Shown piece by piece: positions 5,849-32,534 of a DNA stretch of 32,534 nucleotides (the first letter of the stretch is position 1; each line of letters opens with the position of its first letter). Below the pieces are notes generated by a model. The model did no database searches, was not told where the DNA came from, and was given only the letters and a program-made list of their open reading frames with translations. The translations under genes and the position numbers were made by a program. Source of the DNA: Nemertoderma westbladi (Eukaryota > Animalia > Xenacoelomorpha); the NCBI GenBank assembly GCA_032718475.1, contig JAUCBJ010004821.1:1-32534 (forward strand), given 5' to 3'.

Positions 5849-5853
5849 AATAC

Positions 5854-7047
5854 TGTTCGCGCTTTCAGACCTTTAGCAGTTTAACCTGCCAAATTTAGAT
5901 GTCTTCTAGATTATAAATCGACTTTAGCCTATGAAGAGTATTGGATACACTACATTAGCCGAAGCCAGTCTATGCGCGACCATTCACCAGCTGGATATAC
6001 CCGGGAGACTGGATTCGGAAGCTTTGACCTTATTGCGGTGTAGGCCTACTGTATTATTCGACTGATCGTTAATATATAATTTCTGACAAATATTATTAAC
6101 TTTCGGGAAATATTAACAGTTCCTTTAGGACGTGGCGCTCTAAATATGTAAACAGAGTTATGACTTATACTAGACACAACGGGATGGCTATGGATTCACG
6201 TATAAAGCGCATTCTTTAGGAGATGCTTTGTTATCAGTCACAATCATGCACACTACCACACAATGCTGCACACCGATCTGCCGACCTTCACTAATTTTAG
6301 TCACATATAGAGAGAACAACAACCGACTCATGTAGTGCCTATGAAATAGCATTAGATTCACTCCAAAACCACTTTAATGTAAGTCGCAATTGTTATATGT
6401 AACCGATCTCTCTAACCTTCAGTATATCAAGAAGATTGGGGTTTCTGATTATTGATCGATATTATCCAAATATAACAATATTCCATCAACTGATATAATG
6501 AATAACCGACAGTAAATAGCAGTAAAAATGAGGTGTTTGTAGTTGACAATATGATTTGACACACTGACTTGTGATTAGTTTGTGTGGCGTTTGATTAGAT
6601 AACAGATATACGTTTCTATGATCAAGCCTACTAATGTTTGGCTAAAGCCTGAAAACATAGAGATTCCAAAGCCGGTCTTCTGGCTGTGGACAAAATACAC
6701 ATACTGACTCAATTGCATGAGTTTCTGTATACAATCTCCAACACAGAGTCAAAAAGCGCTCTGATTGGCCGACCGAACAAAGAGAGAACAGAGAACAAAT
6801 AAATGTTACACGTGAACATATCAGCTGTTAGATGTCGTCATGGTAACTACACTGTGTCAAGAAGATTTTAGCGTATTGCGACATAAAATTGCTAGTTATG
6901 TCCGCTAAAGTACACATACAGAAGAAATGGCTTTTTATGTCCACTAAAACACCGGTACAGTAAGGAAACGGCTTTTTATGTCCGTTAAACCAACTACAGA
7001 GTACTTTGCGGGGAAAATAACCAGCTAATTCCGCAAAAGCTTTTACA
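5854..7047 (-). repeat. 3' LTR of the BEL element (1194 bp)
   Basis: TGTTCGCG...TTTTACA; direct repeat of 20651-21848 with about 12 substitutions and 2 small indels by manual count. Confidence 0.97.
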
Positions 7048-7055
7048 CCGCTCCC
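7048..7055 (-). promoter_or_regulatory. Polypurine tract (GGGAGCGG)
   Basis: Short purine-rich stretch directly upstream of the 3' LTR on the element's sense strand. Confidence 0.6.
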
Positions 7056-10122: not shown

Positions 10123-13100
10123 TTACGTTGGGGAGTCCCTGGATGTTGGTTGGATTAGGGAGGTGGTCGTGGGAAGAGTATCTTGCTTTCCATAGTTTCC
10201 GGAGAGTTCTCTGTCTCTTTCCAGTAAACATAAACGACCAACTGGGCGATTGAGCTGCTGTGTCTCGAAGACAATTCCCGGTTTCTTGAAGTTACGTCGC
10301 ATGACGACGAGTTCTACCGATCGCACCAAACATCATCCGAGATGTGAGTCTCGATGATACGACCTGTCTGCCACCTCTTACGTGGAAGATCTGAATCCAC
10401 AATAAGGACCATGTCTCCAGCGCTGACGTTTTCTTGCTGCGCAAACCACTTAGTTCGAAGTTGTAGCGTGGGCAGATAATGTTTTTCGAAATGGTCAGCG
10501 AAACGACGGGATAACAACTGCATAAGTTGCCAAGTTTGCCGGCAGTATTCGTCTCCGTCTGTAATTTCCGATCGTGGGAGCATGGCTACAGGTTTCTTCA
10601 GTAGGAAGTGCGCGGGTGTTAGCGCTTCCAGGGAATCGGGACTCGAGGAGACTGGCATAAGCGGTCTCTCGTTGAGATAGGAGGCGATTTCCTCCATTAA
10701 CATCCGAAAAAGTTCGTCGGTGAGATACGCGCGGCATGGCACTATGAAGTGAAATGCGGTCTTCATGCTCCTGATTAATCTCTCCCAACTTCCTCCCCAC
10801 CAAGGGGCGTCGGCGGCGTTGAAGGTCCAGCTAGACGCTGTTACCCTTAGCTGATCGTCCACCTGTCTTTGGTTCCAATCTTTGACGTAAGCTTTGATTT
10901 CATTGTTGGCACCAATGAAGTTCGTTCCCTTATCAGATCTCATCGTGCTAGTTCCAAAGCGAGTGATCTGTCATCGTAAGCTCAATAAGAAGCTGTTGGT
11001 AGATAAATCGTTCACCATATCGAGATGGATAGCTCTACAAGTCATACAAACAAAGATGACACACCATCTCTTGACTATAGTCCTAGCACGATATACTTCA
11101 ATAGGGCCAAATAAATCTACACCGGTATTAGTAAAGGGTGGTTCATAGAAGCTTACTCGTTCCCTAGGTAATTCTGCCACTCGCTGTGTTAAAGGCCTAC
11201 TGAATGCTTTCCTACAGGGTATGCAGTTCCTAAGAACTTGGTTCAGAGCTCTACGGGGTTTATAAAAATAATAGCGAGTTCGAATTTCGCTAAGAACTCG
11301 TTCTCTACCAGCATGATAAAGTTTGCTGTGAACATCTACAATCATCTTGATTTGTATTTCAAGATTTCTAATGAGTATGGGAAACTTGGTGTCAAAGGAT
11401 AATGGAGCATTAGTTAATCTTCCTCCAACACGTATCAACCCATCTATCATTGTGCTAGAGAAACAATCCCTTAAGCGCATCTGTGGATTTCTCAACAACA
11501 GGAAATACTTATCGGAATCCTCATAGCAGTGCAGGAGTTTCAGCATCTGCTTGTTGGTTTCTTCATGCTCCTGATAACTGATCTTCTCCTTCAGAAACCT
11601 GTCAGATATCTTATATTTGGGAAGATCTTTAACAACATGGACCTGATGGGCCTGCACAGATGTCAGTGGAGCGGTATCACTATTGGTCTTTGCCCTGGAG
11701 TAATGATGATGAAAACATCGTTTTAAATATGTAACGGCTTTACAGAGCCGGTTCCAGGAACTGTAGTGATATATCGCTCTCTGCAGGAGAGGTGAGAGTC
11801 ATTGCGAGACGTCTGGTATTCCAGATTTCCAATCCCTCTCTCTGATTTCAACAACAGACTTATTTGTGGCTATGGGTTTCGGATCCAAAGTGTCGTCTCC
11901 GGAAGTGTGTAGTACAGACAGATCTACTACGGGTTTAAATAACTTCGATTTACTCACCTGAGTTTTAGGTTTGACTTTCTCCGCTCCCTTGGCCTGTCTA
12001 ATCTCTGCCGTAGTAAGATGGGGAGGCCATTCATTCTCTTCTTTGCTTAGGAAGTCGGGTCCACCTAACCAGTCTGGAGTATCTATCAGTTCTTGTGGAG
12101 TTGCTCCCCTGGAGGCGATGTCTGCTGGATTAATTGTTCCGGGGCAATGTCTCCATTGATCCATCTTCGTGCGACTAAGTATAATGGCTACTCTGTTGGT
12201 AACGAAGACGCTGAACTGACAGACTTCATTGGTTATATACTCCAACACGAGTAAAGCAGCGGTCCAATAGACAGTTTTCTCCAGTGGATATTCAATCTGT
12301 TCTGTTACATTCCAGCCGATGGCTGTAGCGTATAGAGCCGCTTTTAACTCCGCTCGAGGAACTTTCAACTTGTTGTTTATCAATGCCTTAGAGGTAACCA
12401 AGGCGACTTTGATTCCATCCGGAGTTTCCACTCTTAGGTAGGCTACTATACCTATTCCCATATCGCTGGCGTCTCCAAACACATGGAGTTGATAGGAATA
12501 CGTAGGGAGAACATGACCAAAATATGAACGGGAAATTATAAAGTTCTCGATGGCTGGTAGAGAATCTTCCCATTTCATCCACTTCTTTAATAATTCTCCC
12601 TTAAGTGGATCGTCCCATGAGTGGTTTTCAAGCCACATTTGTTGTACTAAACTCCGAGCAATCAATATAACTGGGCTAATAAATCCCAATGGATCGAAAT
12701 AAGTGCACAGGATACTTAAACAAATCCGTTTAGTCCGAACTGGATTATCTCGCTGTTTTAGCTGGAAAAACAGGATATCTCTCTCTGTGTCCCATTTCAA
12801 ACCAAGTGTCTTGGTCTCTGGAAGATCATCTTTGATTAGGTCTAGGTCTTTCGCTCCTCGATCTTCTACTGGGATCGATTCCAGAAACTCACGGGAGTTG
12901 CTGGTGAATTTAGTTAATCGAAATCCACCTCTTTTTAAGCACTCTACCGTTCCTTTGGCGACATCAATGGCTTCTTCCACAGATGGAAGGGACTTTAAAT
13001 TGTCGTCCATGTATATATCCCGTTTGATGTTGTCGATCACCTCTTTTGAGAAGGCGTCCCGGTTGTCATCGGCAGTGGTGCGCACCACTGATCAGGCGTT

Positions 13101-13253
13101 TGAAGGGCTTGAGATGATCCCAAAAGCCTGGATTTTCATCCAATACTCCACCGGTTTCTGGTTGAGGTCTCCTTCAGGCCACCACAGAAATAGTAGGCTG
13201 TCTCGATCCCTATCCAGCGCCTTGACTTGTAAGAACATGCCTTCTATATCGGA
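10123..13253 (-). pseudogene. pol: BEL pol, 3' part: RT core (YMDD), RNase H, integrase
   Basis: SDIEGMFLQV..FLWWP..FG..SSPS; DIYMDD; LHVFGDAS..PRAELKAA..NPADIASRG; integrase HHCC (HSKLYHAG..CIPC), DLFGP, SDKGTNF, SWERL. In-frame TGA stops at 13089, 11799 and 10971; frameshift near 10325. Confidence 0.95.
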
Positions 13254-14190
13254 TCAGATCAGTATACGATGGTTCGACAACATTTGTGTCTACTGTTGAC
13301 GGTGATACAGAACCATTTGAAGTGTTATGGGGCATCCTCCAAGGAGACACACTTGCACCATTCTTGTTCATTATTGTGGTTGACTATGTTCTACGCATGT
13401 CCTTAGATCATCATAATGATGATGGGGTGATGATAACTCCACCTACTGGCTCCAGAAGACGAGGAAATCCTGCCAAGTACCTAACTGATCTAGACTTTGC
13501 TGATGACTTAGGAGTACTCTCAGAATCATTAGAGGGAGCCCAACGGCTCCTCAGCTCATTAGAACATGCTGCTTCTAGTGTTGGTCTTTTTATTAACTCC
13601 AGAAAGACCAAAATTCTGACAGTTAACTTTGAAAGTCCTCAGCAAGTCTCTGATCGGATGAGCATAAGCTCAAACGATGGTATGCTTGAGCATGTGGACG
13701 ACTTCTGTTACCTGGGATCATGGATCCGGAAGTCAGATGAGGACCTTCGAATACGTAAGGGAAAGGCATGGGCAGCCTTGAATAGGCTTTCCAAGATTTG
13801 GAAATCACCGAGAATTAATCGGAAACTTAAGGTCCGATTATTTAGAGCAGCAGTAGTTCCAGTACTCCTCTACGGGAGTCCATGCTGGGCTCTAACTGCT
13901 GATGACACCAAATCTCTGGATGGCACATTCACAAGAATGCTACGCCGGGTTCATTGTGTCAAGTACAATGCACACATCTCCAACCAGACACTATATAACA
14001 TTGGAGGTGTCTCATTGGTTCCCCCAAGCTTGACACTAGAACAAAATCGCCTCCGCTTTGCAGGACATTGCTTTCGCCGTGAGGACCAGCCAGTGCATAA
14101 TCTTGTACTTTGGCAGCCTCATGGAGTGAATAAGCATGGTGGACAGCCCATGACTTTCTTGAGACGCATCTTAAAGGACACTGGCCTTAA

Positions 14191-15745
14191 CCCTATTAAA
14201 CCCGGGGGGGGGGGTCAATATGACCCCTCCCGTGGTTTTTTTATTATAATTCTGAAACAAACGCAGTTGGGAATCTGAAATTTTATGACTTTTCCTAAAA
14301 ATCTATTGTCTTCCTAGTTGTGAAAACCGTTTTCAAAAATATTGGGTACTTTTCGAGTTATAGCACCATTTTTTAACCCTACTTTTGGCACTTTTTTTGA
14401 GACGTTTTTTGAAAATTACATTTCATTAAATATGAATTGTAACATCTCTATTTTTGATTTACACCGGTTTTTTGGTGTTAGAAATTGGATGGAATTCATA
14501 TAAATTGATTTAGAAATTTCAAACTTGTTTTTTTCGGTGGGTGCCAAATTTTGGTGCCAGCACCAAATTTTGAAATATGTCAATTTTGTAAATTGATTGT
14601 TTGAAACTTGTTTTTTACGCAATTGGGGTTTTTTGGGGTTCTGGATTCGATTAAATATATACGAGTTGCACCAAGCGTATCAAACTTGTATTTTTCGGTG
14701 CTGTGTGCAAATTTTGGTGCTAGCACGAAATTTTGAAAATCCATTCAATAGATAAAATTGCTTGTGACAATTTATTTCTTGCGTTTTAGAGGTTTATGGC
14801 TGTTCTGAATTCAATGGAATATATAATTATCGAACTAGACATCTCAAACTTGTATTTTTCGGATGTGGGTGCAAAATGTGGTGCTAGCACCAAATTTTGA
14901 AAACCATCAAATATATCAATTGATTGTGTCACCTTGTTTCTTGCGTTATACGGGTTTGTGATGGTTCTGAATTCAATGGAATCAGTAAAAATTTTATAAG
15001 AGTCCTCAAACTTGTATTTTTCGCCGGTGGGTGAAAATTGTTGTGCCAGCACCAAATTTTGGAAAATATGCAAATTGATCAGTAGATAGTATCACCTTGT
15101 TTCTTGCGTTATACGGGTTTATGAGGGTCCTGAATCCGATGGAATCAATAAAAACAGCACTGGACATCGCAAAATTGTACTTTTTGGTGATGGGTACGAA
15201 ATTTGGTGCTAGCACCAAAATTTGCCAAATTACGCCGAAAAATACAAGTAGCAATGATCTGGCATATTAGAAACGTATTCCATTAGAATCAGCGCCCTCG
15301 AAAACCTCAAAATGTGAATTTATAGCATCGTATAAGTGAATTAAAAATTTTATGTTCTAACTGAAAAGTGCTGGTTACTTGTTTTTTTCATTTTTTTCCT
15401 ACGCAGAGAGGACTAAACAGCCATTTATAGTAATCATATCATTTTTGAATATTTTCCAATGTATTTTGCACCCCAGAAAACCTGTATTGAAAAATAATTA
15501 GCCGAAAATGTAACTTTCAAATTTTGTGAAAATTGTGCACTACTTGTAATTTTGGTGCTGCAATATAACCACCCCAGTACATTTTTTCGAAAATTTTTTT
15601 TTTCGGTCGGATCCAGACAAGTCATACCTACGTACAAACAAAAAATCAGACGTTTTCGTAAATATTTGTAGATTTTAGAGGGGGGGGGGTCAATATGACC
15701 CCCCCCGGTATTTGTACAACATTTTATAGCCCGGTACTAATAGGG
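14191..15745. mobile_element. Complete non-autonomous piggyBac-like MITE, copy B (1555 bp)
   Basis: TTAA TSD (14187-14190 and 15746-15749), terminal inverted repeats CCCTATTA...TAATAGGG, subterminal GnGTCAATATGACCn quasi-palindromes at both ends, no ORF. Confidence 0.92.
14440..15290. repeat. About five internal ~163-bp tandem repeats of the MITE
   Basis: Core GGTGC(T/C)AGCACC recurs at 14553, 14716, 14880, 15042 and 15205 (spacing 162-164) with conserved AAACTTGTA/TTTTTCGG flanks. Confidence 0.85.
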
Positions 15746-15887
15746 TTAAAGATGCGGATGATCTAGCAAATGTCATGGGTGATAGGGAGTTGTGGTGGTG
15801 CAATTTTGTTGACAAGCCGGCACAGCATTCTTAAAAATGCCGCTGCAATGCAGCATGCCGATCCTAGTAGTAGTAGTCTATATCGGA

Positions 15888-18800
15888 GGCGAAAACGATT
15901 GAATATTGTCATAATCTTAAGAGTATTCCCAACAAGGATTGGAGTAAGTTGGGTCCTGGTAACAACTCGGAATTAAGGGATTGGCCCATGTAGAGGGCGG
16001 AGCCGTCGAATACTACTCGTACCTCATGAGGTTTACCAGGTTTGGGAACGTAATGATGTGTTAAATAGTACGTTCTTTCAGTTAGGGGTGTTCCTTCCGG
16101 TACTCGCTCCGCATATCCCTTATTAATAAATTTCTTCAACTGAGTCTGATACATTTCTTTAGCTGAAGCATTTGCCGTAAGGCGTCGATGTAGTTGAGCA
16201 ATTCTTTTCTCCGCCAAGGGTCGGTTGTTTATGAATTTTGGTTCTCGCTTTCGGAAAGGTAGACCGATTTCATATCTACCTTGATCTTTAAGAAAACGTG
16301 TGGTTGTCCCCTGGATCTGCTTGGCTCTTTCTTCTTCTACCGATAGGGCCTTATCGTAGGAATTGGGCTCCACAGCCTCTTGAGTAAAGAATCGTACGGC
16401 GTGTTCATCTCGAGTTTTCGCGTTATATCTCTCGATTACGTCATTCAGTTCGTCGTTATAGTTGACTTGTCCTGATGGACGAATGACTTGACATAGGTTC
16501 ACTTGGTTTTGCCAAGTCTCGTTTTCCGTAAGGATATCGATTGTATTCTCTTCGTCGAAGAGCTGATGGATATCGTCATTATCCGAGGAGTATGGTGTTC
16601 CCTCAGTTGGGTCGTCAACTTCACTGCTCTCCACTTCCCATTCACTTAATTGATATACCTGTTCTTTTGGTAATCTTTCCATAAGGGTTCTACGGGAAGG
16701 GCCAGTAAAGTACCAACCTACTCTAGTTCTTCCCGCATAGACTTGTAATGGTTGTGGTTGAGCAGGCCGTTTCTCCAATGTCTCAAGCGCTTCATGCGCA
16801 TTTTGGCCGATGAGTATTTGCACTCCAGGGTAATCCGTGTTGAATCTAGGTATATTAAGCTGCTGGGTGGAATCGTCCTCATCCCAGTTATAAGGTTCTA
16901 CTTGGTTGGTAGCGAAGTTCTTTATCTCCACCATTTTTACTGACCTTATACTATGTTCTCCTGGTTCATCCTGGGGGGGTGGACAACGCACCTACATAAT
17001 AATCAGCTATTACTGTAGATTTCCAAACCTGCATAATTCCTGACATGTTTAACTTAGTTCGGAACTTGGGTTGTCCAGCAAAGATGTCTTCGGCTAGTTC
17101 TTTGTCGATGAATGTTCCTGTGCTACCGGAGTCAAGGAGGGCGTTCACTGTATAACTCCTTTTAAGTCCGTGGACCCTTAACTGTACTACTGGAAATTCT
17201 CGGATTCCTACATTGGAAGTTGGTGCTTTCCAAGATGGTTGTCGGTCAGAAGTAGTTAGGGGGAGCTCGCTGTCGGTGTCCTTTTCATACGTAAGTGCTC
17301 GATACACTGCGGTATTTATCAGGTAACAGGATTCGTTTTCGTCGGAGAATTCGTCCGTATAGAATCCTTCCATCTCAGAACTTTGGTCAGTGTCGTTCAC
17401 ATCACTGAATTGGACATGTAGTTCGGACTCACTTACCTGACTCGGGCTGTTTCGATCGAATTCAGTGTGCAACAAGATATGATGTTTTACGCCGCACTTT
17501 GCACACCTTGCGTCGGAATAACAGGTTCGCCGTTGGTGTCCTCGTCTGAGGCAATTATAACACAACCGCTTGTCCCACATGACCTCACGTCTGTCCTTTA
17601 GTGATTTCCTCAGGAATTCATCACACGCACTTAAACAGTGGGTACCGTCACACAGCACACATTTTGGTTTGATGTTACTTACCTTACTTTGGGTAACGTT
17701 GTGCACACTCGTTCTTTCCTCGGGCTTTCTTACATGAATTCTCTTAGGAGATGTAGGAGGAGTTTTTCTTACCTGTTCTCTCCTGTCATTGGTTCGAGAC
17801 TTGAATTTACTTACGTCCTTAGGCGTTTTATTGACATAATAAGATCTTTCAGTGTCTTTCCCGCTGTCTTCTTCTTGAGAAGCCTGGCTTTCGCCGTCGT
17901 CGGTATAACACACTGGTGTTACTTTTCTCCTAGAAACGGGTTTCTCACTTACCTTGTTTTCCGGTGTCTTCTCTCTGGACTGCTTTAGGAGCTGTAATTT
18001 TACTTCTCCATCTAAGGATGACATGAGATCAGCCATGGTAGGGTCTCGTCTTTGATGTTCCATCATATATAACACTTTCTTATCCCAGCGTGTACCTACT
18101 CCACCCTTAGGTAAAGTAGAGGCCACAGCTCCAATAACCATAGAACTCTGATATTCATGAGACTTACCTAGCCAATCTAATTGTCTACAGATCTCCTGAA
18201 TTTCATCGGAAAACTCTATAATCCCGCTGCTAATGAATTTTCAGGGCGCTACCAATTTTGCATACAAATACCTAGCTATGTTATTCCTATTACCATACCT
18301 GATGTTTAGGGTATTCCAAACTTGTCTTAATCCATCTGGATGTCCAATAAACTTTAACGCCATTAACTTGGGAGATCCTTCCAAGCACTCGATGAGGAAT
18401 CTAAGTTTCTCTCCGTTAGATAGCACAGAGTTCTGTATGTTATCTTTGTAATATTCATTAAAAGGTAACCATTTCATCTCATCTCCATTGAACTTGACGA
18501 TCTCTCCCACCTTTACCGCTTGACGGGCTTCGGTTCTAGCCATTTGACGCGTAAAACTTTCTTGGGCCATCGTGTTATTTAATATCGAGTTATCGGTATA
18601 TAAATTTCTCGGATTATTATCAAGTCTATATGGAATATCATTGTCAACAGGTTTATAATTACCCTTAATAGGGTTTACTATAGGAGTTTCCACTTCACTA
18701 GCAGTATATATGCGTGTAGGCTCCACACCTTGCGCATGAAATACTTCAGACCTAACAGGTTGACACATTGTTACAGGGGGTGGTGGTATACCCTTTTGTG

Positions 18801-19866
18801 TATTTACTAATTTATCGCGTTCTAATGCGATACTCTGCTGCACTTCTTGCAACTCTAACCTACTTTCCCTTACTGTTCCTTTAAACTGATGAACAGTCTC
18901 CTGCATCTGCCCGAGCAGGAGATTCATCCCCCGCCGCCCCTCATCCACCCACTCGACCGCCGAAGCGGGAGCCGCCAACGTAGTAGCGGGTAGACGAGGG
19001 ACGACGGGCGACAAATCATTGATCTTTCGCTCGGAGTCCAGGACAGGAACTGTCTCAGGGGTTGTTTTGTGGGGCACAGGTAGTTTCGTGCTGTGCAAAG
19101 GGAATTTAGAGGTAGGTTCTGGGAGTACAGGTGTCTCTATCACCGAAGGGGTGGCTTCGAGAACAGGCCTAATTATTTCAGGTTCATCTACTATAGTAGG
19201 GAGTCTTTCTAATCTAATAATTTGGTCTGTGGGTTCTGTACTACCTAAGTCTACACTATCCAGTTGCATTCTCACCTCAGGAGGTAACGTCCGCTTGAGC
19301 ATCCGTCTACGTCCGCTTGAACGAGATTTATTACCTCTACCTTCGGGATCTCTCATATCACCTTCATCGGAGGAGGCAAATCCCTGTCTTCTGGAAGTAT
19401 ATCGACTCAGTAACCGCATCTGAGCTGCAACCATAGCTGTCCTCCGTTTCTTCAAGTATTCCTGTTCTGCCCGAAGTTTTTCCAGCTCTAGTTGGGTGGT
19501 CTCTTCAGATGCTCTTAGTTCTGCTTCTGCCACTGCTATCTTTCTTTCCGCTTCTGCCGCTGCCGCTTTTCTTTCCGCTTCTATTGCTGCAGCTGCCGCT
19601 TTTCTTTCCGCTTCTGCCGCTGCAGCTGCCACTTTCCTTTCAGATTCTATTTGCCGTGGCTTTAATTGTCTATCCTTAACCAGCCTAGGGTCTGACACTA
19701 CTACTGAAGGGATGACCTTTCCTACAGTAGGGGACTTGGACTTTGGTCTGGGATGTTCTATACTTTGATCTTGGTCACAGATCCTTTCAAGACACTGTCC
19801 AATCCTAAGACTCATTCTAACACCTTCCAAAAGACTATCTGACAGTGCCCGTTTTGTGTCAGACAT
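15888..19866 (-). pseudogene. gag: BEL gag, aspartic protease and RT N-terminus (5' part of a single gag-pol ORF)
   Basis: ATG at 19866; AAAEAERK coiled-coil repeats; KFNGDEMKWLPF (DUF1759-like); three Cys-His boxes CVLCDGTHCLSAC, CYNCLRRGHQRRTC, CAKCGVKHHILLH; LLDSGS protease motif; YYLTHHYV..KPHEVRVVFDGSA..SLNSELLPGPNL. Frameshifts near 18245 and 16975. Confidence 0.95.
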
Positions 19867-20004
19867 GTTTGTTTGTACAGTTGAATGCCTACTGCTATAT
19901 TACAGTTAAAGCAAGTCTAGTAATTCAGTATCACCGTTAGCCTAGTAATTAATTACCGATACTGTTACTCAGTGTAACGTGATATATATATATATAATAT
20001 ATTA

Positions 20005-20260
20005 GAATACCGGTATACACTTATAGTATATATATAAGTATTATTACAGACTAGGTTTGTCACAGAATACCGGTATATAATTTCAGCACAACTATATATA
20101 TAAATATATAATAGGCCTATCGTGAATACCGGTATACAGCTTACACTTATAGTACATATAAGTATAATTATGGACTAGAATTAATTACAGAATACTGGTA
20201 TAATTTCAGCCTAAATTTATAGAAATAAATATAAAAAGCCTATCGTAAATACCGGTATGT
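20005..20260. repeat. Five ~60-bp leader repeats, each centred on the palindrome ATACCGGTAT
   Basis: Palindrome at 20007, 20067, 20126, 20192 (C>T variant) and 20249; alternating A/B unit types. Confidence 0.8.
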
Positions 20261-20639
20261 CAATTATTTTAGAATAATTGAATTTCTGAATTTTAGGGGT
20301 TACTTGGTTACTTTACTTTACCTTATTACCGTTATTTAAGCAGTAGTCCAACTGATATTAAGACCTAATTGTTGTATGGCAGGCCTACTATTTTATAAAT
20401 TGGTTTGAGTTGATTTATAATATATATATACCCGTATAATGGGTTTTGTCAATATTTGAAATAAATGTTATTATTTCTGGGAAGTTATTTCCGGGTGGTT
20501 AGGAAGTTAGGCCTACTGGGTACCGGTTGACCGGTACTTCAGCTTTATTGCCTACTGCAATACAGAAGCAATAACCGTTATTGTTCTTACCAGAACAATA
20601 TTAAACTGTATTTATTGCCTACACTGCAATCAGAAGTTC

Positions 20640-20650
20640 ATATCTGTTAT
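20640..20650 (-). promoter_or_regulatory. Non-tRNA primer-binding site candidate ATAACAGATAT (self-priming type)
   Basis: Abuts the 5' LTR, lacks TGG, and is the exact reverse complement of the sense-strand LTR 11-mer at 21403-21393. Confidence 0.7.
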
Positions 20651-21848
20651 TGTTCGCGCTTTCAGACCTTTAGCAGTTTAACCTGCCAAATGTAGATGTC
20701 TTCTAGATTATAAATCGACTTTAGCCTATGACGAGTATTGGATACACTACATTAGCCGAAGCCAGTCTATGCGCGACCATTCACCCGCTGGATATACCCG
20801 GGAGACTGGATTCGGAAGCTTTGACCTTATTGCGGTGTAGGCCTACTGTATTATTCGACTGATTGTTAATATATAATTTCTGACAAATATTATTAACTTT
20901 CGGGAAATATTAACAGTTCCTTTAGGACGTGGCGCTCTAAATATGTAAACAGAGTTATGACTTATACTAGACACAACGGGATGGCTATGGATTCACGTAT
21001 AAAGCGCATTCTTTAGGAGATGCTTTGTTATCAGTCACAATCATGCACACTACCACACAATGCTGCACACCGATCTGCCGACCTTCACTAATTTTAGTCA
21101 CATATAAAGAGAACAACCGACTCATGTAGTGCCTATGAAATAGCATTAGATTCACTCCAAAACCACTTTAATGTAAGTCGCAATTGTTATATGTAACCGG
21201 TCTCTCTAACCTTCAGTATATCAAGAAGATTGGGGTTTCTGATTATTGATCGATATTATCCAAATATAACAATATTCCATCAACTGATATAATGAATAAC
21301 CGACAGTAAATAGCAGTAAAAATGCGGTGTTTGTAGTTGACAATATGATTTGACACACTGACTTGTGATTAGTTTGTGTGGCGTTTGATTAGATAACAGA
21401 TATACGTTTCTATGATCAAGCCTACTAATGTTTGGCTAAAGCCTGAAAACATAGAGATTCCAAAGCCGGTCTTCTGGCTGTGGACAAAATACACATACTG
21501 ACTCAATTGCATGAGTTTCTGTATACAATCTCCAACACAGAGTCAAAAAGCGCTCTGATTGGCCGACCGTACAAAGAGAGAACAGAGAACAGAGAACAAA
21601 GATATGTTACACGTGGACATATCAGCTGTTAGATGTCGTCATGGTAACTACACTGTGTCAAGAGGATTTTAGCGTATTGCGACATAAAATTGCTAGTTAT
21701 GTCCGCTAAAGTACACATACAGAAGAAATGGCTTTTTATGTCCACTAAAACACCGGTACAGTAAGGAAACGGCTTTTTATGTCCGTTAAACCAACTACAG
21801 AGTACTTTGCGGGGAAAATAACCAGCTAATTCCGCAAAAGCTTTTACA
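20651..21848 (-). repeat. 5' LTR of the BEL element (1198 bp)
   Basis: Direct repeat of 5854-7047 with TG...CA termini. Contains a sense-strand CCAAT box (GGCCAATCAG, 21564-21555) and ATTAAA (21172-21167). Confidence 0.97.
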
Positions 21849-21853
21849 AATAC

Positions 21854-23390
21854 CTTTTGGATGCTTCGGTTAGGACAGCTAGATATTCGTATAATGATCG
21901 CCAGAATTTCCCGGAATATTTGCATTCGGAGAGGCATTGTTTGTGAGAGCTCGTGGATTACCTGATTGTTGGCATAGCAACCCAAGTGCAAGATCCCACG
22001 TATAACCTTTCGGTAAGTAACGTCAACTCCATCTCTGTCATGTTCAGAAAGCTTGTGAACCCAGATTTTATCTAGGGGGCCTAGATAAAATCTCGTGCTG
22101 TATAGAATCTTTGGCACAGCATTTGAAGTCCAAAGCTTTGCTTAAACTAAATCACTCTGGTGTCCAACTATGGCGGTGAAACTCGTTGGCAATTCCATAC
22201 AAGATGCTGTCAATTTCTCCCCTCAATTTGTCTGAAGTCGAAAAAATCTTAATTCCAAGAAATTTGATTTGGTTGCAAGGTATTAGAAGTTTACCATTAA
22301 TATTTACTACATTCGATTCTTCGAATTTACTTGATATACAAATCCATTTAGTTTTGAACTGCTCCATCTCCAGATCTATTTTAGAAGCGCCGTCTTTCAA
22401 TATTTTGGCCAGCCTTGTGATGTCTTCCTTATACGTTGTAAGGAGTAAATAGTCGTCAGCATAGCACACTGCTCCTAACCACAATGAAGAGATCGTACAT
22501 CCAATCTGAGACTTCTCCATTTCATACATAATGTCTGATGTATATAAGTTAAATAGTAGAGGCGACACAATTGACCCTTGCTTGACCCCATTGGATAGTG
22601 AGAAACCTTTAATGTCTACAAGGTTATCGAATTTACAATACATTATAGTTACATTGTAATAACTCATTAACAATAGTGTTGTGTATGGGTCTAAATATTC
22701 CGAGAGTTTTCTGAACAGCTTCTCGTGATTTACGCTGTCAAATGCGGAAGCTATATCCATTTGGCAGAGGTATATTGGTACCTTCCTCTCGCGATAGTAT
22801 TCAATACTTTCTAGAATCAAAGATATTACAAGGTCGGCTCCATTTTTTTTCCCTATATGCTGTCTGCAACCCATGAGTTTTTAGGCCTGTGAAAGTTGTT
22901 ATCCTGTATGCTATTACTCCCTCCAATACTTTTCCAAACACACTTACGCTTGATACTGGCCGATAAGATGATGGTTGTTGTGCATCCCTTCCTCCACCTT
23001 TAAAGATACTGCTGATTATAGTTTTGGTTTTGATTTGGTTTAGTGCCATGGTTACCTTTCTCAGATTACTTTTCGATATAAAGTTCCTCAGTCTCCGAAT
23101 ATTCCTCCTTGCCTCCTTAAAAGCAGTGCCATAAGGATCTTTATCTTCCTTCCTCTTATTATTATGAACTCTTACGTTCTTTGTTTGTTTTCTATGGTTG
23201 GGTTTATATAGTTGGGTGGCTAATGTCATCCGGTAGGCCACGCGTGAAGATCACAAATAACCCATACAGTCATGATAGTTGACCCCTAAGTTGTCTAAAA
23301 ACACATGTTGGCAATCGTGAAAGTTATGCTGGGTACATGTTTCCATGGCAACTAGTATTTTGTGAGATTGGTATTGGTATTTAAAATGCC
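21854..23390 (-). pseudogene. Decayed APE-type LINE RT, RTE-X-like; 5'-truncated at the satellite border
   Basis: YRPVSSVSVFGKVLE, DIASAFDSVNH, GVKQGSIVSPLLFNLY, IGCTI..GAVCYADD, KFLGI; frameshifts and an apparent internal deletion upstream of YRPVS. Clade assignment is tentative. Confidence 0.8.
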
Positions 23391-23392: not shown

Positions 23393-26300
23393 GCGCTGGG
23401 CTGGTGTCAATCACTGATACCAACGTTATCTGGTGCTGGGCTGGTGTCAGTCACTAAGTGGTACCAACGTTATGTGGTGCTGGGATGGTGTCAGTCACTA
23501 AGTGGTACCAACGTTATCTGGTGCTTGGCTGGTGTCAGTCACTAAGTGGTACCAACGTTATCTGGTGCTGGGCTGGTGTCAGTCACTAAGCGGTACCAAT
23601 GTTATCTGGTGCTGGGCTGGTGTCAGTCACTAAGTGGTACCAACGTTATCTGGTGCTGGGATGGTGTCAGTCAATGTTATCTGGAGCTGGGAGCTGGGCT
23701 GGTGTCAGTCACTAAGCGGTACCAACGTTATATGGTGCTGGGCTGGTGTCAGTCACTAAGTGGTACCAACGTTATCTGGTGCTTGGCTGGTGTCAGTCAC
23801 TAAGAGGTACCAACGTTATCTGGTGCTGGGCTAGTGTCAGTCAACGTTATCTGGCGCTGGGCTGGTATCAGTCACTAAGTGATACCAACGTTATCTGGTG
23901 CTGGGCTGGTGTCAGTCAACATTATCTGGTGCTTGGCTGGTGTCAGTCACTAAGTGGTACCAACGTTATCTGGTGCTGGGCTGGTGTCAGTCACTAAGTG
24001 GTACCAACGTTATCTGGTGCTGGGCTGGTGTCAGTCACTAAGTGGTACCAACGTTATCTGGTGCTGGGCTGGTGTCAGTCACTAAGTGGTACCAACGTTA
24101 TCTGGTGCTGGGCTGGTGTCAGTCACTAAGTGGTACCAACGTTATGTGGTGCTGGGCTGGTGTCAGTCGCTAAGCGGTACCAACATTATCTGGCGCTGGG
24201 CTGGTGTGAGTCACTAAGTGGTACCAACGTTATGTGGTGATGGGATGGTGTCAGTCACTCTGTGGTACCAACGTTATATGGTTCTGGGATGGTTACAGTC
24301 ACTAAGTGGTACCGACGTTATGTGGTGCTGGGATGGTGTCAGTCACTAAGTGGTACCAACGTTATGTGGTGCTGGGATGGTGTCAGTCACTAAGTGGTAC
24401 CAACGTTATCTGGTGCTGGGCTGGTGTCTGTCACTAAGTGGTACCAACGTTATCTGGTGCTGGGCTGGTGTCAGTCAACGTTATCTGGCGCTGGGCTGGT
24501 GTCAGTCACTAAGTGGTACCAACGTTATCTGGTGCTGGGCTGGTGTCAGTCACTAAGTGGTACCAACGTTATCTGCGCTGGACTGGTGTCAGTCACTAAG
24601 TGGTACCAACGTTATCTGAGCTGGGCTGGTGTCAGTCACTAAGTGGTACCAACGTTATCTGGTGCTGGGATGGTGTCAGTCACTAAGTGGTACCAACGTT
24701 ATCTGGCGCCGGGCTGGTGTCAGTCACTAAGTGGTACCAACGTTATCTGGTGCTGGGCTGGTATCAGTCACCAAGTGGTACCAACGTTATCTGGTGCTGG
24801 GCTGGTGTCAGTCACTAAGTGGTACCAACGTTATGTGGTGCTGGGATGGTGTCAATCACCAAGTGGTACCAACGTTATCTGGCGCTGGGCTGGTGTCAGT
24901 CACTAAGTGGTGCCAACATTATGTGGTGCTGGGATGGTGTCAGTCACTAAGTGGTACCAACGTTTTGTGGTGCTGGGCTGGTGTCAGTCACTAAGTGGTA
25001 CCAATGTTATGTGGTGCTGGGATGGTGTCAGTCACTAAGTGGTACCAACGTTATCTGGCGCTGGGCTGGTGTCAGTCACTAAGTGGTACCAACGTTATCT
25101 GGCGCTGGGCTGGTGTCAGTCACTAAGTGGTACCAACGTTATACTGGCGCTGGGCTGGTGTCAGTCACTAAGTGGTACCATCGTTATGTGGTGCTGGGAT
25201 GGTGTCAGTCACTAAGTGGTACCAACGTTATCTTGCACTGCGCTGCGCTGGGCTGGTGTCAGTCACTAAGTGGTACCAACGTTATACAGCGCTGGGCTGG
25301 TGTCAGTCACTAAGTGGTATCAATGTTATGTGGTGCTGGGATGGTGTAAGTCACTAGGTGGTACCAACGTTATCTGCGCTGCGCTGGGCTGGTGTCAGTC
25401 ACTAAGTGGTACCAACGTTATGAGGTGCTGGGATGGTGTCAGTCACCCAAGTGGTACCAACGTTATGTGGTGCTGAGATGGTGTCAGTCACTAAGTGGTA
25501 CCAACGTTATCTGGTGCTGGGCTGGAGTCAGTCACTAAGTGGTACCAACGTTATGTGGTGCTGGGATGGTGTCAGTCACTAAGTGGTACCAATGTTATCT
25601 GGCGCTGGGCTGGTGTCAGTCACTAAGTGGTACCAACGTTATCTGCGCTGGGCTGGTGTCAGTCACTAAGTGGTGCCAACGTTATGTGGTGCTGGGATGG
25701 TGTCAGTCACTAAGTGGTACCAACGTTATCTGCGCTGAGCTGGTGTCAGTCACTAAGTGGTACCAACGTTATCTTGCGCTGGGCTGGTGTCAGTCACTAA
25801 GTGGTACCAACGTTATATGGCGCTGGGCTGGTGTCAGTCACTAAGTGGTACCATCGTTATGTGGTGCTGGGATGGTGCCAGTCACTAAGTGGTACCAACA
25901 TTATCTTGCGCTGCGCTGCGCTGGGCTGGTGTCAGTCACTAAGTGGTACCAACGTTATACGGCGCTGGGCTGGTGTCAGTCACTAAGTGGTATCAACGTT
26001 ATGTGGTGCTGGGATGGTGTCAGTCACTAAGTGGTACCAACGTTATCTTGCGCTGCGCTGGGCTGGTGTCAGTCACTAAGTGGTACCAACGTTATGTGGT
26101 GCTGGGATGGTGTCAGTCACCCAAGTGGTACCAACGTTATGTGGTGCTGGGATGGTGTCAGTCACTAAGTGGTACCAACGTTATCTGGCGCTGGGCTGGT
26201 GTCAGTCACTAAGTGGTACCAACGTTATCTGAGCTGGGCTGGTGTCAGTCACTAAGTGGTACCAACGTTATCTGGTGCTGGGCTGGTGTCAGTCACTAAG

Positions 26301-27130
26301 TGGTACCAACGTTATCTGGTGCTGGGCTGGTATCAGTCACTAAGTGGTACCAACGTTATCTGGTGCTGGGCTGGTGTCAGTCACTAAGTGGTACCAACGT
26401 TATGTGGTGCTGGGCTGGTGTCAGTCACCAAGTGGTACCAACGTTATCTGGCGCTGGGCTGGTGTCAGTCACTAAGTGGTGCCAACATTATGTGGTGCTG
26501 GGATGGTGTCAGTCACTAAGTGGTACCAACGTTATGTGGTGCTGGGCTGGTGTCAGTCACTAAGTGGTACCAACGTTATGTGGTGCTGGGATGGTGTCAG
26601 TCACTAAGTGGTACCAACGTTATCTGGCGCTGGGCTGGTGTCAGTCACTAAGTGGTACCAACGTTATCTGGCGCTGGGCTGGTGTCAGTCACTAAGTGGT
26701 ACCAACGTTATACGGCGCTGGGCTGGTGTCAGTCACTAAGTGGTACCATCGTTATGTGGTGCTGGGATGGTGTCAGTCACTAAGTGGTACCAACGTTATC
26801 TTGCACTGCGCTGCGCTGGGCTGGTGTCAGTCACTAAGTGGTACCAACGTTATACAGCGCTGGGCTGGTGTCAGTCACTAAGTGGTATCAACGTTATGTG
26901 GTGCTGGGATGGTGTAAGTCACTAAGTGGTACCAACGTTATCTTGCGCTGCGCTGGGCTGGTGTCAGTCACTAAGTGGTACCAACGTTATGAGGTGCTGG
27001 GATGGTGTCAGTCACCCAAGTGGTACCAACGTTATGTGGTGCTGAGATGGTGTCAGTCACTAAGTGGTACCAACGTTATCTGGTGCTGGGCTGGAGTCAG
27101 TCACTAAGTGGTACCAACGTTATGTGGTGC
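23393..27130. repeat. 44-bp satellite array, block 1
   Basis: Consensus GCTGGGCTGGTGTCAGTCACTAAGTGGTACCAACGTTATCTGGT in head-to-tail tandem. Confidence 0.98.
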
Positions 27131-28680
27131 CCCAGGTAGCACAGGACGTCCACGAAAGAAATTGAACGTTCATATTTGGTACTTTTTTTATGCGAATCTG
27201 AACATCAATGAAATATTGTTCAAAATAGGTAAAAATTGCTGACGTTGTGAGTAATTTACCAAATTGTGACGTTCACATTAGGTAATTTAACGTCCTAACT
27301 TTAAAGAAATTGAATATGTACCAAAACAAACGAATATTGAACGTTCAAATTGCGTCCAGTTATGCGTTCATTTCTTTGTACCTAAATATGTACGTTGTTT
27401 GAACATTTATGAACGTTCAAACATAATTTACTTTAACTTGTTATGTCAATGGCATGTTCAAACTTGTTCGTGATACAATTATCTGACTATTTATTATTGT
27501 GCAATTATTTTTTATGTTGGTTAGCCTACTCCTTGTATGGTTGGTGTGGTTCCGCTTAGTTATATCTGGACTAATGGTTCATTCTCAATACAAAACAATT
27601 ACTTTAAGTAATCGAAAAATTATTCACACAACAAAACATTGATAACCAATACAATGCTGACGCATTTTTAAACATTTTAAACAACAAATAACATCAAAAT
27701 TAGACAAAGGTGATTCTACTGATTACTAAAGCTAATACACTAGTACTATGTCACGAAAAATTGTAATAAAATTATTAGAATATATTAGGCCTATTGAACC
27801 AAGAAAATATCAAACAAAGAAAACCGCAAAAGTTTGTCTATTTTGATACCAACTGACCAAATACCATTACATTTTGTTGAGATAAATCGGATATATGGGC
27901 GTTGGAATGTTCAAACTTCTATCATGCGTAGGGTAATTTTTTTAATCGCAAAACATTATTTTTTATTTTACAAATTTATCATATTATATAAACCTTTCTT
28001 ACGTTTCAATTGCTTTTTGTATGTATTATTGCCTTATTGCATAGATACAAAATTTCAAATATCAATTATAAGGTCATAAAATTAATTAATTTTTTTAAGA
28101 TTCATCAATATGAATAATCTATTTTGGCTGGAAATAAGATAAAATACAGAAATCTAACTAATCCAATGTGAATTTGTGGATCATCACCATAATATATCAT
28201 GGATACTCTTATATCACTATCGATTAAATAATTTCATATATACTCTGATGCTTCCTTCTCTAAATGTATAGGGTATTGTAGGTGTAGGGCCGTAGGATAG
28301 GGTGTAGGGATTGGATAAGGTAGGCTAACCCCCCCCCCCCCCCCCCTCCCCTCTCTACACAGAACATGCACCAACAAACAGTGATTGGTTGGTCTCACGT
28401 TAAATTTTTACGTTTATTCAACCTAATATGGACCTATAACACACCAGAAATGAACGTCTAGTGAACACGTCATTTGAACATAGATTGCCTGTGGTCTCTT
28501 TTACGTTCAATTGCCCGTTCATATTACGGTACTTCTGACGGCCAACTTTGAACTATTGAACGTTTAGCATCAATAGCATCTTATGGGAGAAATACAACGT
28601 CATATGAACATAAATCCAGAACGTCTGGACGAATAATGAACGTAAATTTACCGTAAATTTACGTATTTGTGCTACCTGGG
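27131..28680. mobile_element. Non-autonomous CMC/EnSpm-like DNA transposon (1550 bp) inserted in the satellite
   Basis: 13-bp TIR CCCAGGTAGCACA / TGTGCTACCTGGG, 2-bp TSD GC (27129-27130 and 28681-28682), many subterminal GAACGT/ACGTTC motifs at both ends, AT-rich non-coding interior. Confidence 0.85.
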
Positions 28681-30761
28681 GCTGGGATGGTGTCAGTCAC
28701 TAAGTGGTACCAACGTTATCTGGCGCTGGGCTGGTGTCAGTCACTAAGTGGTACCAACGTTATCTGGCGCTGGGCTGGTGTCAGTCACTAAGTGGTACCA
28801 ACGTTATCTGGTGCTGGGCTGGTGTCAGTCACTAAGTGGTACCAACGTTATCTGGCGCTGGGCTGGTGTCAGTCACTAAGTGGTACCAACGTTATCTGGT
28901 GCTGGGCTGGTGTCAGTCACTAAGTGGTACCAACGTTATCTGGCGCTGGGCTGGTGTCAGTCACTAAGTGGTACCAACGTTATCTGGTGCTGGGCTGGTG
29001 TCAGTCACTAAGTGGTACCAACGTTATCTGGCGCTGGGCTGGTGTCAGTCACTAAGTGGTACCAACGTTATCTGGCGCTGGGCTGGTGTCAGTCACTAAG
29101 TGGTACCAACGTTATCTGGCGCTGGGCTGGTGTCAGTCACTAAGTGGTACCAACGTTATCTGGTGCTGGGCTGGTGTCAGTCACTAAGTGGTACCAACGT
29201 TATCTGTGCTGGGCTGGTCGTCACGTCCAACGTTATCTGGCGCTGGGCTGGTGTCAGTCACTAAGTGGTACCAACGTTATCTGGCGCTGGGCTGGTGTCA
29301 GTCACTAAGTGGTACCAACGTTATCTGGTGCTGGGCTGGTGTCAGTCACTAAGTGGTACCAACGTTATCTGGTGCTGGGCTGGTGTCAGTCACAACGTTA
29401 TCTGTGCTGGGCTGGTAGTCACTAAGTGGTACCAACGTTATCTGGCGCTGGGCTGGTGTCAGTCACTAAGTGGTACCAACGTTATCTGGTGCTGGGCTGG
29501 TGTCAGTCACTAAGTGGTACCAACGTTATCTGGTGCTGGGCTGGTGTCAGTCACTAAGTGGTACCAACGTTATCTGGTGCTGGGCTGGTGTCAGTCACTA
29601 AGTGGTACCAACGTTATCTGGTGCTGGGCTGGTGTCAGTCACTAAGTGGTACCAACGTTATCTGGTGCTGGGCTGGTGTCAGTCACTAAGTGGTACCAAC
29701 GTTATCTGGTGCTGGGCTGGTGTCAGTCACTAAGTGGTACCAACGTTATCTGGTGCTGGGCTGGTGTCAGTCACTAAGTGGTACCAACGTTATCTGGTGC
29801 TGGGCTGGTGTCAGTCACTAAGTGGTACCAACGTTATCTGGTGCTGGGCTGGTGTCAGTCACTAAGTGGTACCAACGTTATCTGGCGCTGGGCTGGTGTC
29901 AGTCACTAAGTGGTACCAACGTTATCTGGCGCTGGGCTGGTCAGTCACTAAGTGGACCAACGTTATCTGGCGCTGGGCTGGTGTCAGTCACTAAGTGGTA
30001 CCAACGTTATCTGGCGCTGGGCTGGTGTCAGTCACTAAGTGGTACCAACGTTATCTGGCGCTGGGCTGGTGTCAGTCACTAAGTGGTACCAACGTTATCT
30101 TGCGCTGCGCTGGGCTGGTGTCAGTCACTAAGTGGTACCAACGTTATCTGGTGCTGGGCTGGTGTCAGTCACTAAGTGGTACCAACGTTATCTGTGCTGG
30201 GCTGGTGTCAGTCACTAAGTGGTACCAACGTTATCTGGTGCTGGGCTGGTGTCAGTCACTAAGTGGTACCAACGTTATCTGGTGCTGGGCTGGTGTCAGT
30301 CACTAAGTGGTACCAACGTTATCTGGCGCTGGGCTGGTGTCAGTCACTAAGTGGTGCCAACGTTATGTGGTGCTGGGATGGTGTCAGTCACTAAGTGGTA
30401 CCAACGTTATCTGGTGCTGGGCTGGTGTCAGTCACCCTAAGTGGTACCAACGTTATGTGGTGCTGGGCTGGTGTCTGTCACTAAGTGGTACCAACGTTAT
30501 CTGGTGCTGGGCTGGTGTCAGTCAAAGTTATCTGGCGCTGGGCTGGTGTCAGTCACTAAGTGGTACCAACGTTATCTGGTGCTGGGCTGGTGTCAGTCAC
30601 TAAGTGGTACCAACGTTATGAGGTGCTGGGATGGTGTCAGTCACCCAAGTGGTACCAACGTTATGTGGTGCTGGGATGGTGTCTGTCACTAAGTGGTACC
30701 AACGTTATCTGGTGCTGGGCTGGTGTCAGTCACTAAGTGGTACCAACGTTATGTGGTGCTG
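28681..30761. repeat. 44-bp satellite array, block 2
   Basis: Same monomer, in register across the MITE insertion. Confidence 0.98.
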
Positions 30762-31888
30762 TGTCGGGGTTAGTGACCGCTATGGGTCATATGGGTAAAA
30801 CTGTGAGGACCTGGCGAATATATCTCCCCGTAGATAATACACCAGGCGAGTAGCGGCCCACTGGTTGGCTTGGATCTCCAGCCCGACTGCCCGATGTGCA
30901 GTGCAGCAGCCTAGAGTCAGCGCAGCGTCACTGGTTCACGCGCACGATTTGTGAGGCTGGGGATGTGTTTGGTTCAAACTCTTACAGCGGGCTGCTAGGG
31001 ATCTGGCTATGGGGATAAGGATGTGAAAATTGCAGAGTGGTTCATTGTATAAAAATGTATCTATAATATCTTATAAGCAGAATAAGCCTAGAAACTAATG
31101 TCCCACATTTACATTTACAAACATAACAATATTGAAAATAACAGAAAGGTGACTTACTGGCATTTAATAATCTGCACAGCACAATGCAAACCCAGCACAA
31201 CAGACCAGAGAGACACGGCTTCCAAAGTTTGTAATTTATTAGATTCTCCAAACTGCTCACGCTGACAAAGAGATAATAGCACCATTGAACAACAGAACTG
31301 CATTTGAATATAGTTCGTGCGTGCGTGAGCGCGTGCGTGAGGATGTGCGTGAGCGCGTGCGTGAGCGCGTGCGTGAGGATGTGCGTGAGCGCGTGCGTGA
31401 GCGCGTGCGTGAGCGCGTGCGTGAGCGCGTGCGTTAGCGCGTGCGTTAGCGCGTGCGTTAGCGCGTGCGGTAACCAAATTAAGTGACCGCTATGACTGTA
31501 GGCCTTAGATGGCCAAAGTACTGCACTGCTAAATACATGACAGCACAAACCGACAAGCTAGCTACCTACATACTGACAACGTGAATTAATGACACCTGAG
31601 AAATAGAGTGTACTATACTTATGGGAGCTACTCTGTACAGAGGTCAACCTGTTGTATGAAGTGTAACATTAAACTAAGTATAAACCCCTGCTATTGGCTC
31701 GGCTATTAATTATCGAGTTTGTTAGGCGCCGGAACCAAAGCTAAAGGCTACCTCTAATCAGAGCAGATATAATCGCACAATAATATTATGGGTCTAGGAC
31801 TTCGTTGCTAAGTAGATATCACCAGTAAATATAAATGGAATGCATATTAGTTCGCGAAAAGCTTATTGGAGAGAGGATGGACAATACA
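30762..31888. mobile_element. Solo LTR (~1127 bp) inserted in the satellite
   Basis: TGT...ACA termini and 5-bp TSD TGCTG (30757-30761 and 31889-31893); removal restores an intact monomer. Confidence 0.8.
31316..31469. repeat. 12-bp minisatellite (GCGTGCGTGAGC)n
   Basis: About 12-13 tandem units with GAGGAT and TTAGC variants. Confidence 0.95.
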
Positions 31889-32534
31889 TGCTGGGATGGT
31901 GTCAGTCACTAAATGGTACCAATGTTATCTGGCGCTGGGCTGGTGTCAGTCACTAAGTGGTACCAACGTTATCTGCGCTGGGCTGGTGTCAGTCACTAAG
32001 TGGTGCCAACGTTATGTGGTGCTGGGATGGTGTCAGTCACTAAGTGGTACCAACGTTATCTGGCGCTGGGCTGGTGTCAGTCACTAAGTGGTACCAACGT
32101 TATCTGGCGCTGGGCTGGTGTCAGTCACTAAGTGGTACCAACGTTATCGGCGCTGGGCTGGTGTCAGTCACTAAGTGGTACCAATCGTTATCTGGCGCTG
32201 GGCTGGTGTCAGTCACTAAGTGGTACCAACGTTATACGGCGCTGGGCTGGTGTCAGTCACTAAGTGGTACCATCGTTATGTGGTGCTGGGATGGTGTCAG
32301 TCACTAAGTGGTACCAACGTTATCTTGCGCTGCGCTGCGCTGGGCTGGTGTCAGTCACTAAGTGGTACCAACGTTATACGGCGCTGGGCTGGTGTCAGTC
32401 ACTAAGTGGTATCAACGTTATGTGGTGATGGGATGGTGTAAGTCACTAAGTGGTACCAACGTTATCTTGCGCTGCGCTGGGCTGGTGTCAGTCACTAAGT
32501 GGTACCAACGTTATGTGATGCTGGGATGGTGTCA
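31889..32534. repeat. 44-bp satellite array, block 3 (runs off the window)
   Basis: Same monomer; variant order resembles 25560-26110. Confidence 0.98.

Follow-up and report, generated by a model that had tools for sequence, protein, structure and literature searches.

How does a BEL/Pao retrotransposon prime minus-strand DNA synthesis when no tRNA primer-binding site (PBS) follows its 5' LTR? The question is raised by an element of Nemertoderma westbladi located on contig JAUCBJ010004821.1 (GCA_032718475.1), of which positions 1 to 32,534 were analysed (32,534 nt, hereafter the window). Members of the Belpaoviridae are described as having genomes of 4.2-10 kb, LTRs of up to 1.2 kb, a polypurine tract of ~10 nt and a PBS of 18 nt complementary to tRNA-Arg or tRNA-Gly, and their replication is called poorly understood (PMC8742986).

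The window contains one BEL/Pao LTR element, located on the minus strand and comprised of the following parts.

21849..21853, minus strand: target-site duplication GTATT, upstream copy
20651..21848, minus strand: 5' LTR, 1198 nt, TG...CA, beginning TGT and ending GCGAACA
16966..19899, minus strand: gag (DUF1759, Cys-His motifs) and protease region, with an in-frame stop at 18243-18241
15867..16991, minus strand: pol upstream of the insertion (start of the RT region), in a frame different from that of the gag-protease ORF
13270..15866, no strand assigned: nested insertion of ~2.6 kb interrupting RT, with a LINE-like RT fragment on the plus strand and a 163-bp tandem array
10314..13268, minus strand: pol past the insertion, with the remainder of RT, Peptidase_A17 (Pao), integrase H2C2 and DUF5641
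7048..7055, minus strand: short purine-rich tract, 8 nt, 7/8 purines, abutting the 3' LTR and resembling the tracts of relatives
5854..7047, minus strand: 3' LTR, 1194 nt, TG...CA
5849..5853, minus strand: target-site duplication GTATT, downstream copy

The LTRs differ by 11 substitutions over 1191 aligned positions (0.9% divergence), and the element is a young, recent insertion. Pfam searches returned DUF1759 (E-value 2e-6), Peptidase_A17 (4e-35), DUF5641 (1e-15) and Integrase_H2C2, with an aspartyl protease match below the cut-off and no match to a chromodomain in the element. Given these domains and the full-length relatives that are collinear with the window in tblastn alignments, the proteins are those of BEL/Pao, the identity given in the preliminary description. 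A search for homologues yielded 427; all 120 of those listed carry PF05380 and show 33-42% identity, and those named are from aquatic animals. The downstream part of pol contains in-frame stops at 11801-11799 and 10973-10971; with the stop in gag, the three in-frame stops and the 2.6-kb insertion within RT indicate that this copy is defective. The element resembles the Belpaoviridae in LTR size, in its gag-PR-RT-RH-INT order with Pao-type Pfam domains and in its metazoan-type relatives, and its short purine tract may correspond to their polypurine tract of ~10 nt. It departs from their profile in having no tRNA PBS and in its span of 16.0 kb (~13.4 kb minus the nested insertion) as opposed to 4.2-10 kb, and is treated here as an atypical variant that carries BEL/Pao proteins.

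Other features were observed in and around the element. The nested insertion also holds a repeat common to positions 3-336 and 929-1187 of the window. The ~3 kb between integrase and the 3' LTR (7126-10100, minus strand) are AT-rich and include a tandem pair of 164 bp. Short ORFs in this stretch (8186-8500, 7572-8027 and 7126-7428, minus strand) have no Pfam match and are possibly a decayed extra gene. A 123-bp tandem pair occupies 20016-20258 in the leader. A LINE-like RT fragment lies at or adjoining the insertion site (21629-22880, minus strand; RVT_1 at 22152-22880), a 44-bp satellite of more than 150 copies fills 23395-30761 and 31890-32534, a 12-bp array lies at 31319-31469, and three ORFs of 200-238 aa at 2101-4012 (minus strand) have no Pfam match. 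No match was obtained in the window with ARAGORN or Rfam.

Pairing with the CCA 3' end of any mature tRNA needs TGG at the PBS. TGG is absent after the LTR, and the site therefore differs from the 18-nt tRNA-complementary PBS of the ICTV profile. The LTR is followed without a gap by an 11-mer for which the LTRs themselves provide the complement.

20640..20650, minus strand: 11-mer ATAACAGATAT at the PBS position, without TGG and directly after the 5' LTR
21393..21403, minus strand: 11-mer of the 5' LTR proposed as self-primer, perfectly complementary to the 11-mer at the PBS position
6599..6609, minus strand: the same LTR 11-mer in the 3' LTR

In the whole window the exact reverse complement of ATAACAGATAT occurs only at 21403-21393 and 6609-6599, and the loop between the LTR 11-mer and the PBS measures 742 nt. 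The preliminary description had reported the lack of TGG, the gapless 11-mer after ...GCGAACA, its exact LTR complement and a loop of about 740 nt, all of which are borne out by the window sequence. Its estimate for a chance match, roughly 3e-4, was too low: the exact 11-mer was found in 27 of 20,000 dinucleotide-shuffled LTRs, and a match of at least 11 was reached in 14 of 4,000 shuffles when offsets of 0-4 were allowed. Within the element, 6 of 13,591 other interior positions have an 11-mer complement in the LTR. A single match of such rarity is suggestive, and in a large scan insufficient alone.

Retention of the pair was assessed among other copies of the family with contigs from four public runs mapped on the region, only contigs at least 80% alike being considered; two of the runs, X1 and X3, come from separate studies that share an organism code. 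In the three runs covering 21389-21416 (X1, X3 and X4) no substitution reached 3% of depth in that interval, the one change being a single-base deletion at 21407, outside the LTR 11-mer. Run X5, possibly RNA, has no cover at 21394-21470 and was set aside for the reading of start sites and introns; none of the runs listed is on record as RNA, which has no bearing on expression. Immediately downstream of the 11-mer in the sense direction depth falls sharply; here three variants carry other sequence over the adjoining 40-70 nt and return to the reference at 21391, 2 nt from the 11-mer. At the other site, an X3 variant has different sequence at 20541-20639 and matches again from 20640, which is the last base of the PBS. 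Since variants rejoin beside both 11-mers, the 11-mers persist where adjoining sequence turns over. No variant at 20640-20650 was present among the 40 of 436 rows shown, and the LTR-PBS junction is covered at high depth by contigs of other family copies. The invariance is not confined to the 11-mer: 21458-21505 is likewise without a substitution row, and no variant row falls on 21558-21562, the positions of a CCAAT box. No compensatory change of the pair was seen in the contig variants of the family. Summed depth in X1, which is not a measure of copy number, was ~0.4-1.5 million over the PBS and U5 versus 20,000-57,000 over the LTR 11-mer, and many PBS-bearing copies may differ at the LTR 11-mer region. 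A separate observation is that depth over U5 and the leader (19854-20469 and 20624-21316) is 10- to 50-fold higher than over the promoter and LTR 11-mer region (21317-21700) or the start of gag; the high-depth region may represent a very abundant non-autonomous or promoter-swapped subfamily.

Covariation of post-LTR 10-12-mers with each family's own LTR had been proposed as a check, and this was pursued in an alignment-based scan that yielded 80 metagenome loci (the best 80 among 470 confirmed in the portion of the collection covered) and 14 loci on genome contigs; viral contigs gave no confirmed relatives from 121 pattern matches. The LTR end was inspected in 30 of the 94 loci, the other 64 having no readable 5' LTR end, and was fixed by LTR-to-LTR alignment in the same or a sister locus for 12 families, although the end in L044 rests on a 74% alignment and that in L045 was picked by eye. 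In 9 of the 12 families the sequence starting 0-4 nt past the LTR end is an exact 10-14-nt complement of the family's own LTR, with letters that differ by family. In 7 of these 9 (split type) the full complement forms only once a predicted intron with canonical GT-AG ends is removed, the introns in the LTRs being 77-451 nt. The families and their match lengths are listed below by locus.

L005/L092: split type, 12
L009-L011: split type, 11
L068/L071: split type, 11
L080: split type, 12
L082/L084: split type, 11
L014/L015: split type, 14
L042/L045: split type, 11
L060: contiguous type as in the window, 10
L044: contiguous type as in the window, 11
L091: without exact complement (8 exact, 11 with one mismatch, by eye)
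L024 and L051/L070: TGG-type with a long tRNA-like TGG site, without complement, score 4

The match lengths cluster at 11, the length known from Tf1. With the post-LTR sequence shuffled, scores as high as the observed one arose in 0-3 of 300 trials for each positive family tested this way, in 8 of 300 for L091 and in none of 500 for the L014/L015 family; L045 was outside the shuffle tests. The offset was widened from 3 to 4, and the splice patterns were set, while the relatives were being inspected. When each post-LTR sequence was scored against every LTR in a 13-by-13 cross table, values of at least 10 were obtained in 10 of 13 own-LTR cells versus 1 of 154 between-family cells. The relatives include a compensatory change: L082 and L084 differ at three adjacent PBS bases together with three complementary LTR bases at the end of the first exon, and the score is 11 within each locus but 8 when the two LTRs are exchanged. 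Split matches of 10-11 nt next to ACA or a like terminus were also seen in four more families with a known LTR start and an inferred end (L016, L035, L064 and L069/L073); since each has other matches of at least 10 elsewhere, they are secondary evidence. The L015 site begins with TGG yet is self-complementary, indicating that TGG alone is no mark of tRNA use; three loci labelled TGG from the motif only (L025, L033 and L008) stand outside the 12 families.

A splice-built primer was rejected for the window element itself, in which the best split match is 7 nt. It is an intron-less form, and most readable relatives would need removal of a GT-AG intron. A repeat pair in L094 was dropped, as it belongs to a different nested LTR element; that element (L094:921-5640) lies upstream of the BEL/Pao match, apparently in opposite orientation, and has a putative half-tRNA-like site. 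The BEL/Pao contigs L081-L094 are binned in bacterial MAGs, most likely as host contamination.

The position of the window element among these relatives was examined in a careful tree of 24 rows built on the RT-RNase H region, with unnamed relatives only. The window row has an end branch of 1.79 and falls in a 5-row group (89/93, unstarred) with three TGG-type rows and one unlabelled row; a wider, starred 9-row group also contains a self-complementary relative, split-type L015. Split, contiguous and TGG labels are interleaved on the tree (6, 3 and 4 changes), two of the TGG labels and that of L008 being from the motif only. The placement of the window is unsure, and the nearest sampled rows appear to be TGG-type. 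Because a self-complementary relative is present only in the wider starred group, the covariation comes mostly from other branches at ~40% identity. As read from these alignments, it shows a self-priming signature that is widespread in BEL/Pao, and does not imply inheritance by the lineage of the window.

The leader was folded, and the LTR was inspected for signals bearing on where transcription starts.

20829..20842, minus strand: predicted helix B, upstream arm, pairing with 20630-20617 (13/14 Watson-Crick)
20617..20630, minus strand: predicted helix B, downstream arm, 3' flank of the PBS
20764..20776, minus strand: predicted helix A, upstream arm, pairing with 20668-20654 with an internal loop (folding only)
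20654..20668, minus strand: predicted helix A, downstream arm, 5' flank of the PBS
21558..21562, minus strand: CCAAT box
21497..21501, minus strand: initiator-like TCAGT, candidate start, 98 nt upstream of the LTR 11-mer and 57 nt after CCAAT
21424..21428, minus strand: initiator-like TTAGT, second candidate start, 25 nt upstream of the LTR 11-mer
21167..21172, minus strand: ATTAAA, candidate poly(A) signal, the only AATAAA/ATTAAA in the LTR, 220 nt downstream of the 11-mer

The 13 pairs of helix B were reached in 17 of 3000 shuffles and in 2 of 336 interior windows, in a test devised post hoc. The 11-bp duplex is worth -10.5 kcal/mol, and opening both 11-mers costs 4.4 kcal/mol. In nested folding of an 860-960-nt leader the duplex had a probability of 0 from each of three start points. 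Since helices A and B enclose the PBS, pairing with the primer would cross them as a pseudoknot, which nested folding cannot represent; without the helices the duplex is still not favoured. In the relatives the loops are only 45-196 nt (80 in L015) versus 742 nt in the window element, and the duplex in cis is predicted with a mean probability of 0.31-0.99 on leaders trimmed to start at the primer. Folding gave both flanking helices in none of 10 relatives. Two local hairpins directly follow helix B (20600-20545), and the leader repeats part of the downstream arm of that helix.

A CCAAT box upstream and an ATTAAA downstream of 21403 had been noted before, and are confirmed at 21562-21558 and 21172-21167; no TATA box was found in the 130 nt upstream of the LTR 11-mer. 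The further reading, in which transcription begins at 21403 and the leading 11 nt of the transcript serve as primer, is not supported. The initiator-like motifs TCAGT and TTAGT lie 98 and 25 nt upstream, and in the split-type relatives only 3-6 nt of the complementary segment precede the intron, such that a start at the 5' end of the primer would require a first exon of 3-6 nt. From these observations we infer an upstream start and an internal primer, unlike in Tf1; transcription probably starts upstream of 21403. A possible 55-nt intron with a GTATGT donor and a pyrimidine-rich CAG acceptor lies upstream of the 11-mer at 21498-21444 (minus strand). An intron that would shorten the 742-nt loop was also sought: candidate sites exist, and no matching joint was present among the 15 of 35 joints shown. 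Such an intron would also tend to vanish from daughter copies, and it is not supported.

These results point to a mechanism in which the family likely primes minus-strand DNA in cis with a piece of its own LTR RNA in place of a tRNA. Transcription would start in the 5' LTR at 21403 or, more probably, ~25-100 nt upstream of it. The predicted helices A and B, which join U5 to the flanks of the PBS, would shorten the loop and keep the PBS open, and the LTR 11-mer would pair with the PBS as a pseudoknot resembling the 'pretzel' of Tf1. Cleavage at the 3' end of the duplex, a task of the element's RNase H if Tf1 is a guide, would leave a 3'-OH at 21393, from which RT would copy U5 and R and then jump to the 3' LTR. 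This mechanism builds on four observations: the anatomy of the element, the exact match, the fact that copies retain it, and the recurrence of the pattern in relatives. The preliminary description had proposed tRNA-independent self-priming; that core gains real support from the comparisons, with the 11-mers kept among copies and the signature present in 9 of 12 related families, and the detail of a primer formed by the start of the transcript does not. It made no mention of the defects of this copy, of the complements that most relatives build across an intron or of the two helices beside the PBS.

The pairing could also take place in trans, the primer being a short LTR transcript or the copy of the 11-mer in the 3' LTR. 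The presence of the 11-mer in both LTRs agrees with such a source, as do the long loop and the zero probability under nested folding, and in 7 of 10 relative loci AATAAA or ATTAAA lies 0-25 nt past the complementary segment, which could give short or 3'-end RNAs ending nearby. The only such signal of the window is 220 nt downstream, however, the flanking helices suit a structure in cis, and the relatives' duplex is predicted to form in cis; a primer in trans is considered unlikely. A host RNA, such as an internal tRNA fragment, would be the primer if the pairing were a regulatory or packaging structure or a coincidence. The required primer ends CUGUUAU, which may resemble the anticodon loop of tRNA-Asn; this counts in favour of a host RNA, as do the TGG-type rows nearest on the tree. 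The PBS sequences of the self-complementary relatives speak against it, being numerous, unrelated and matched in each case by the LTR of the same element only, since one host tRNA set would not track them, as does the duplex beginning 0-4 nt from the LTR end, where the primer must end to yield the integrase end. Priming by half-tRNAs does exist in some Ty1/copia lineages, yet among plant elements it is confined to Ty1/copia in the accessible portion of PMC6317226. On this evidence a host RNA is if anything slightly less probable than a primer in trans.

Least probable, and quite improbable in itself, is that the match arose by chance and that this defective copy has lost a genuine tRNA PBS by deletion or decay. 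The three in-frame stops and the 2.6-kb insertion are what such a copy could show, and a match is expected by chance at a rate of 1e-3 to 4e-3 per element with very many windows scanned. Against this, the junction is deeply covered in other copies with no variant at 20640-20650 among the rows shown, one variant preserves the PBS as far as its final base, the LTR 11-mer stays invariant although a hypervariable stretch adjoins it, and 9 of 12 related families share this anatomy. Priming in cis from the LTR thus remains the preferred reading.

Self-priming of this kind is known from other superfamilies. In the Tf1/sushi group an 11-nt LTR segment is complementary to the sequence right after the 5' LTR and no tRNA PBS is present, according to the accessible part of PMC7175516, and the 'pretzel' of Tf1 contains two further duplexes between the PBS flanks and the LTR (bioRxiv 2022.12.06.519325, in its accessible part). 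The element resembles Tf1 and Tf2 of Schizosaccharomyces pombe, Tj1, Tosmo1-3 and the Tf1/sushi group in having an 11-nt LTR complement at an LTR-adjacent PBS and no tRNA PBS. As possible counterparts of the 'pretzel', both flanking helices are predicted in the element, and the crossing central duplex is beyond nested folding. In contrast to Tf1/sushi elements, which are Ty3/gypsy chromoviruses, it has BEL/Pao domains and no chromodomain, and is not a member of that group. It further differs from Tf1, which primes with the 5'-terminal 11 nt of its RNA, in a primer that is probably internal and in its 742-nt loop, and its relatives mostly need splicing to build the segment, a feature not described for Tf1/sushi in the portions of the sources at hand. 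The accessible parts of PMC6317226, PMC7175516, PMC4600332, PMC2864245 and PMC5341516 describe self-priming in Tf1/sushi and predict it in Tcn1 and in the copia lineage TAR. For the TAR lineage (Houba and Osr-1, plant Ty1/copia) and the Tcn1 clade the prediction likewise comes from complementarity (PMC6317226, same portion), and indicates that self-priming recurs outside Tf1; these are plant or fungal copia and gypsy elements with proteins unrelated to those of the window element. The string ATAAC, given in the preliminary description as the start of the Tf1 PBS, was not found in two papers on self-priming that were searched for it.

No report of self-priming or of splice-built primers in BEL/Pao was found in the openly accessible literature searched; a prior mention may exist in supplements, subscription papers or entries of Repbase and GyDB. 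Among BEL/Pao surveys, the main text of PMC3118150 has no occurrences of the terms sought, that of PMC554778 mentions PCR primers only, that of PMC6238403 has no PBS, primer or tRNA, and that of PMC8220671 has a general mention; the accessible parts of PMC3601003, PMC6934838 and PMC3286476 add nothing on priming in BEL/Pao. The element would represent a known mechanism in a superfamily described as tRNA-primed, a function that we infer from sequence. On balance, self-priming seems to be common across the BEL/Pao elements of aquatic animals and interleaved with tRNA priming, mostly with an internal primer of 11-14 nt assembled by splicing; the window element would be an intron-less form that bridges 742 nt by a Tf1-like pseudoknot and evolved independently of Tf1.

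If this is correct, self-priming would occur in all three superfamilies of LTR retrotransposons, and BEL/Pao elements would have changed the type of primer, tRNA or self, on more than one occasion. The BEL/Pao elements in which annotation tools find no PBS would then also be explained. For native RNA the mechanism makes an exact prediction: cleavage should fall 3' of 21393, and strong-stop cDNA should carry a primer that comes from the LTR. Replication of the relatives would depend on splicing within the LTR, and their mobilisation would thereby be tied to RNA processing by the host.
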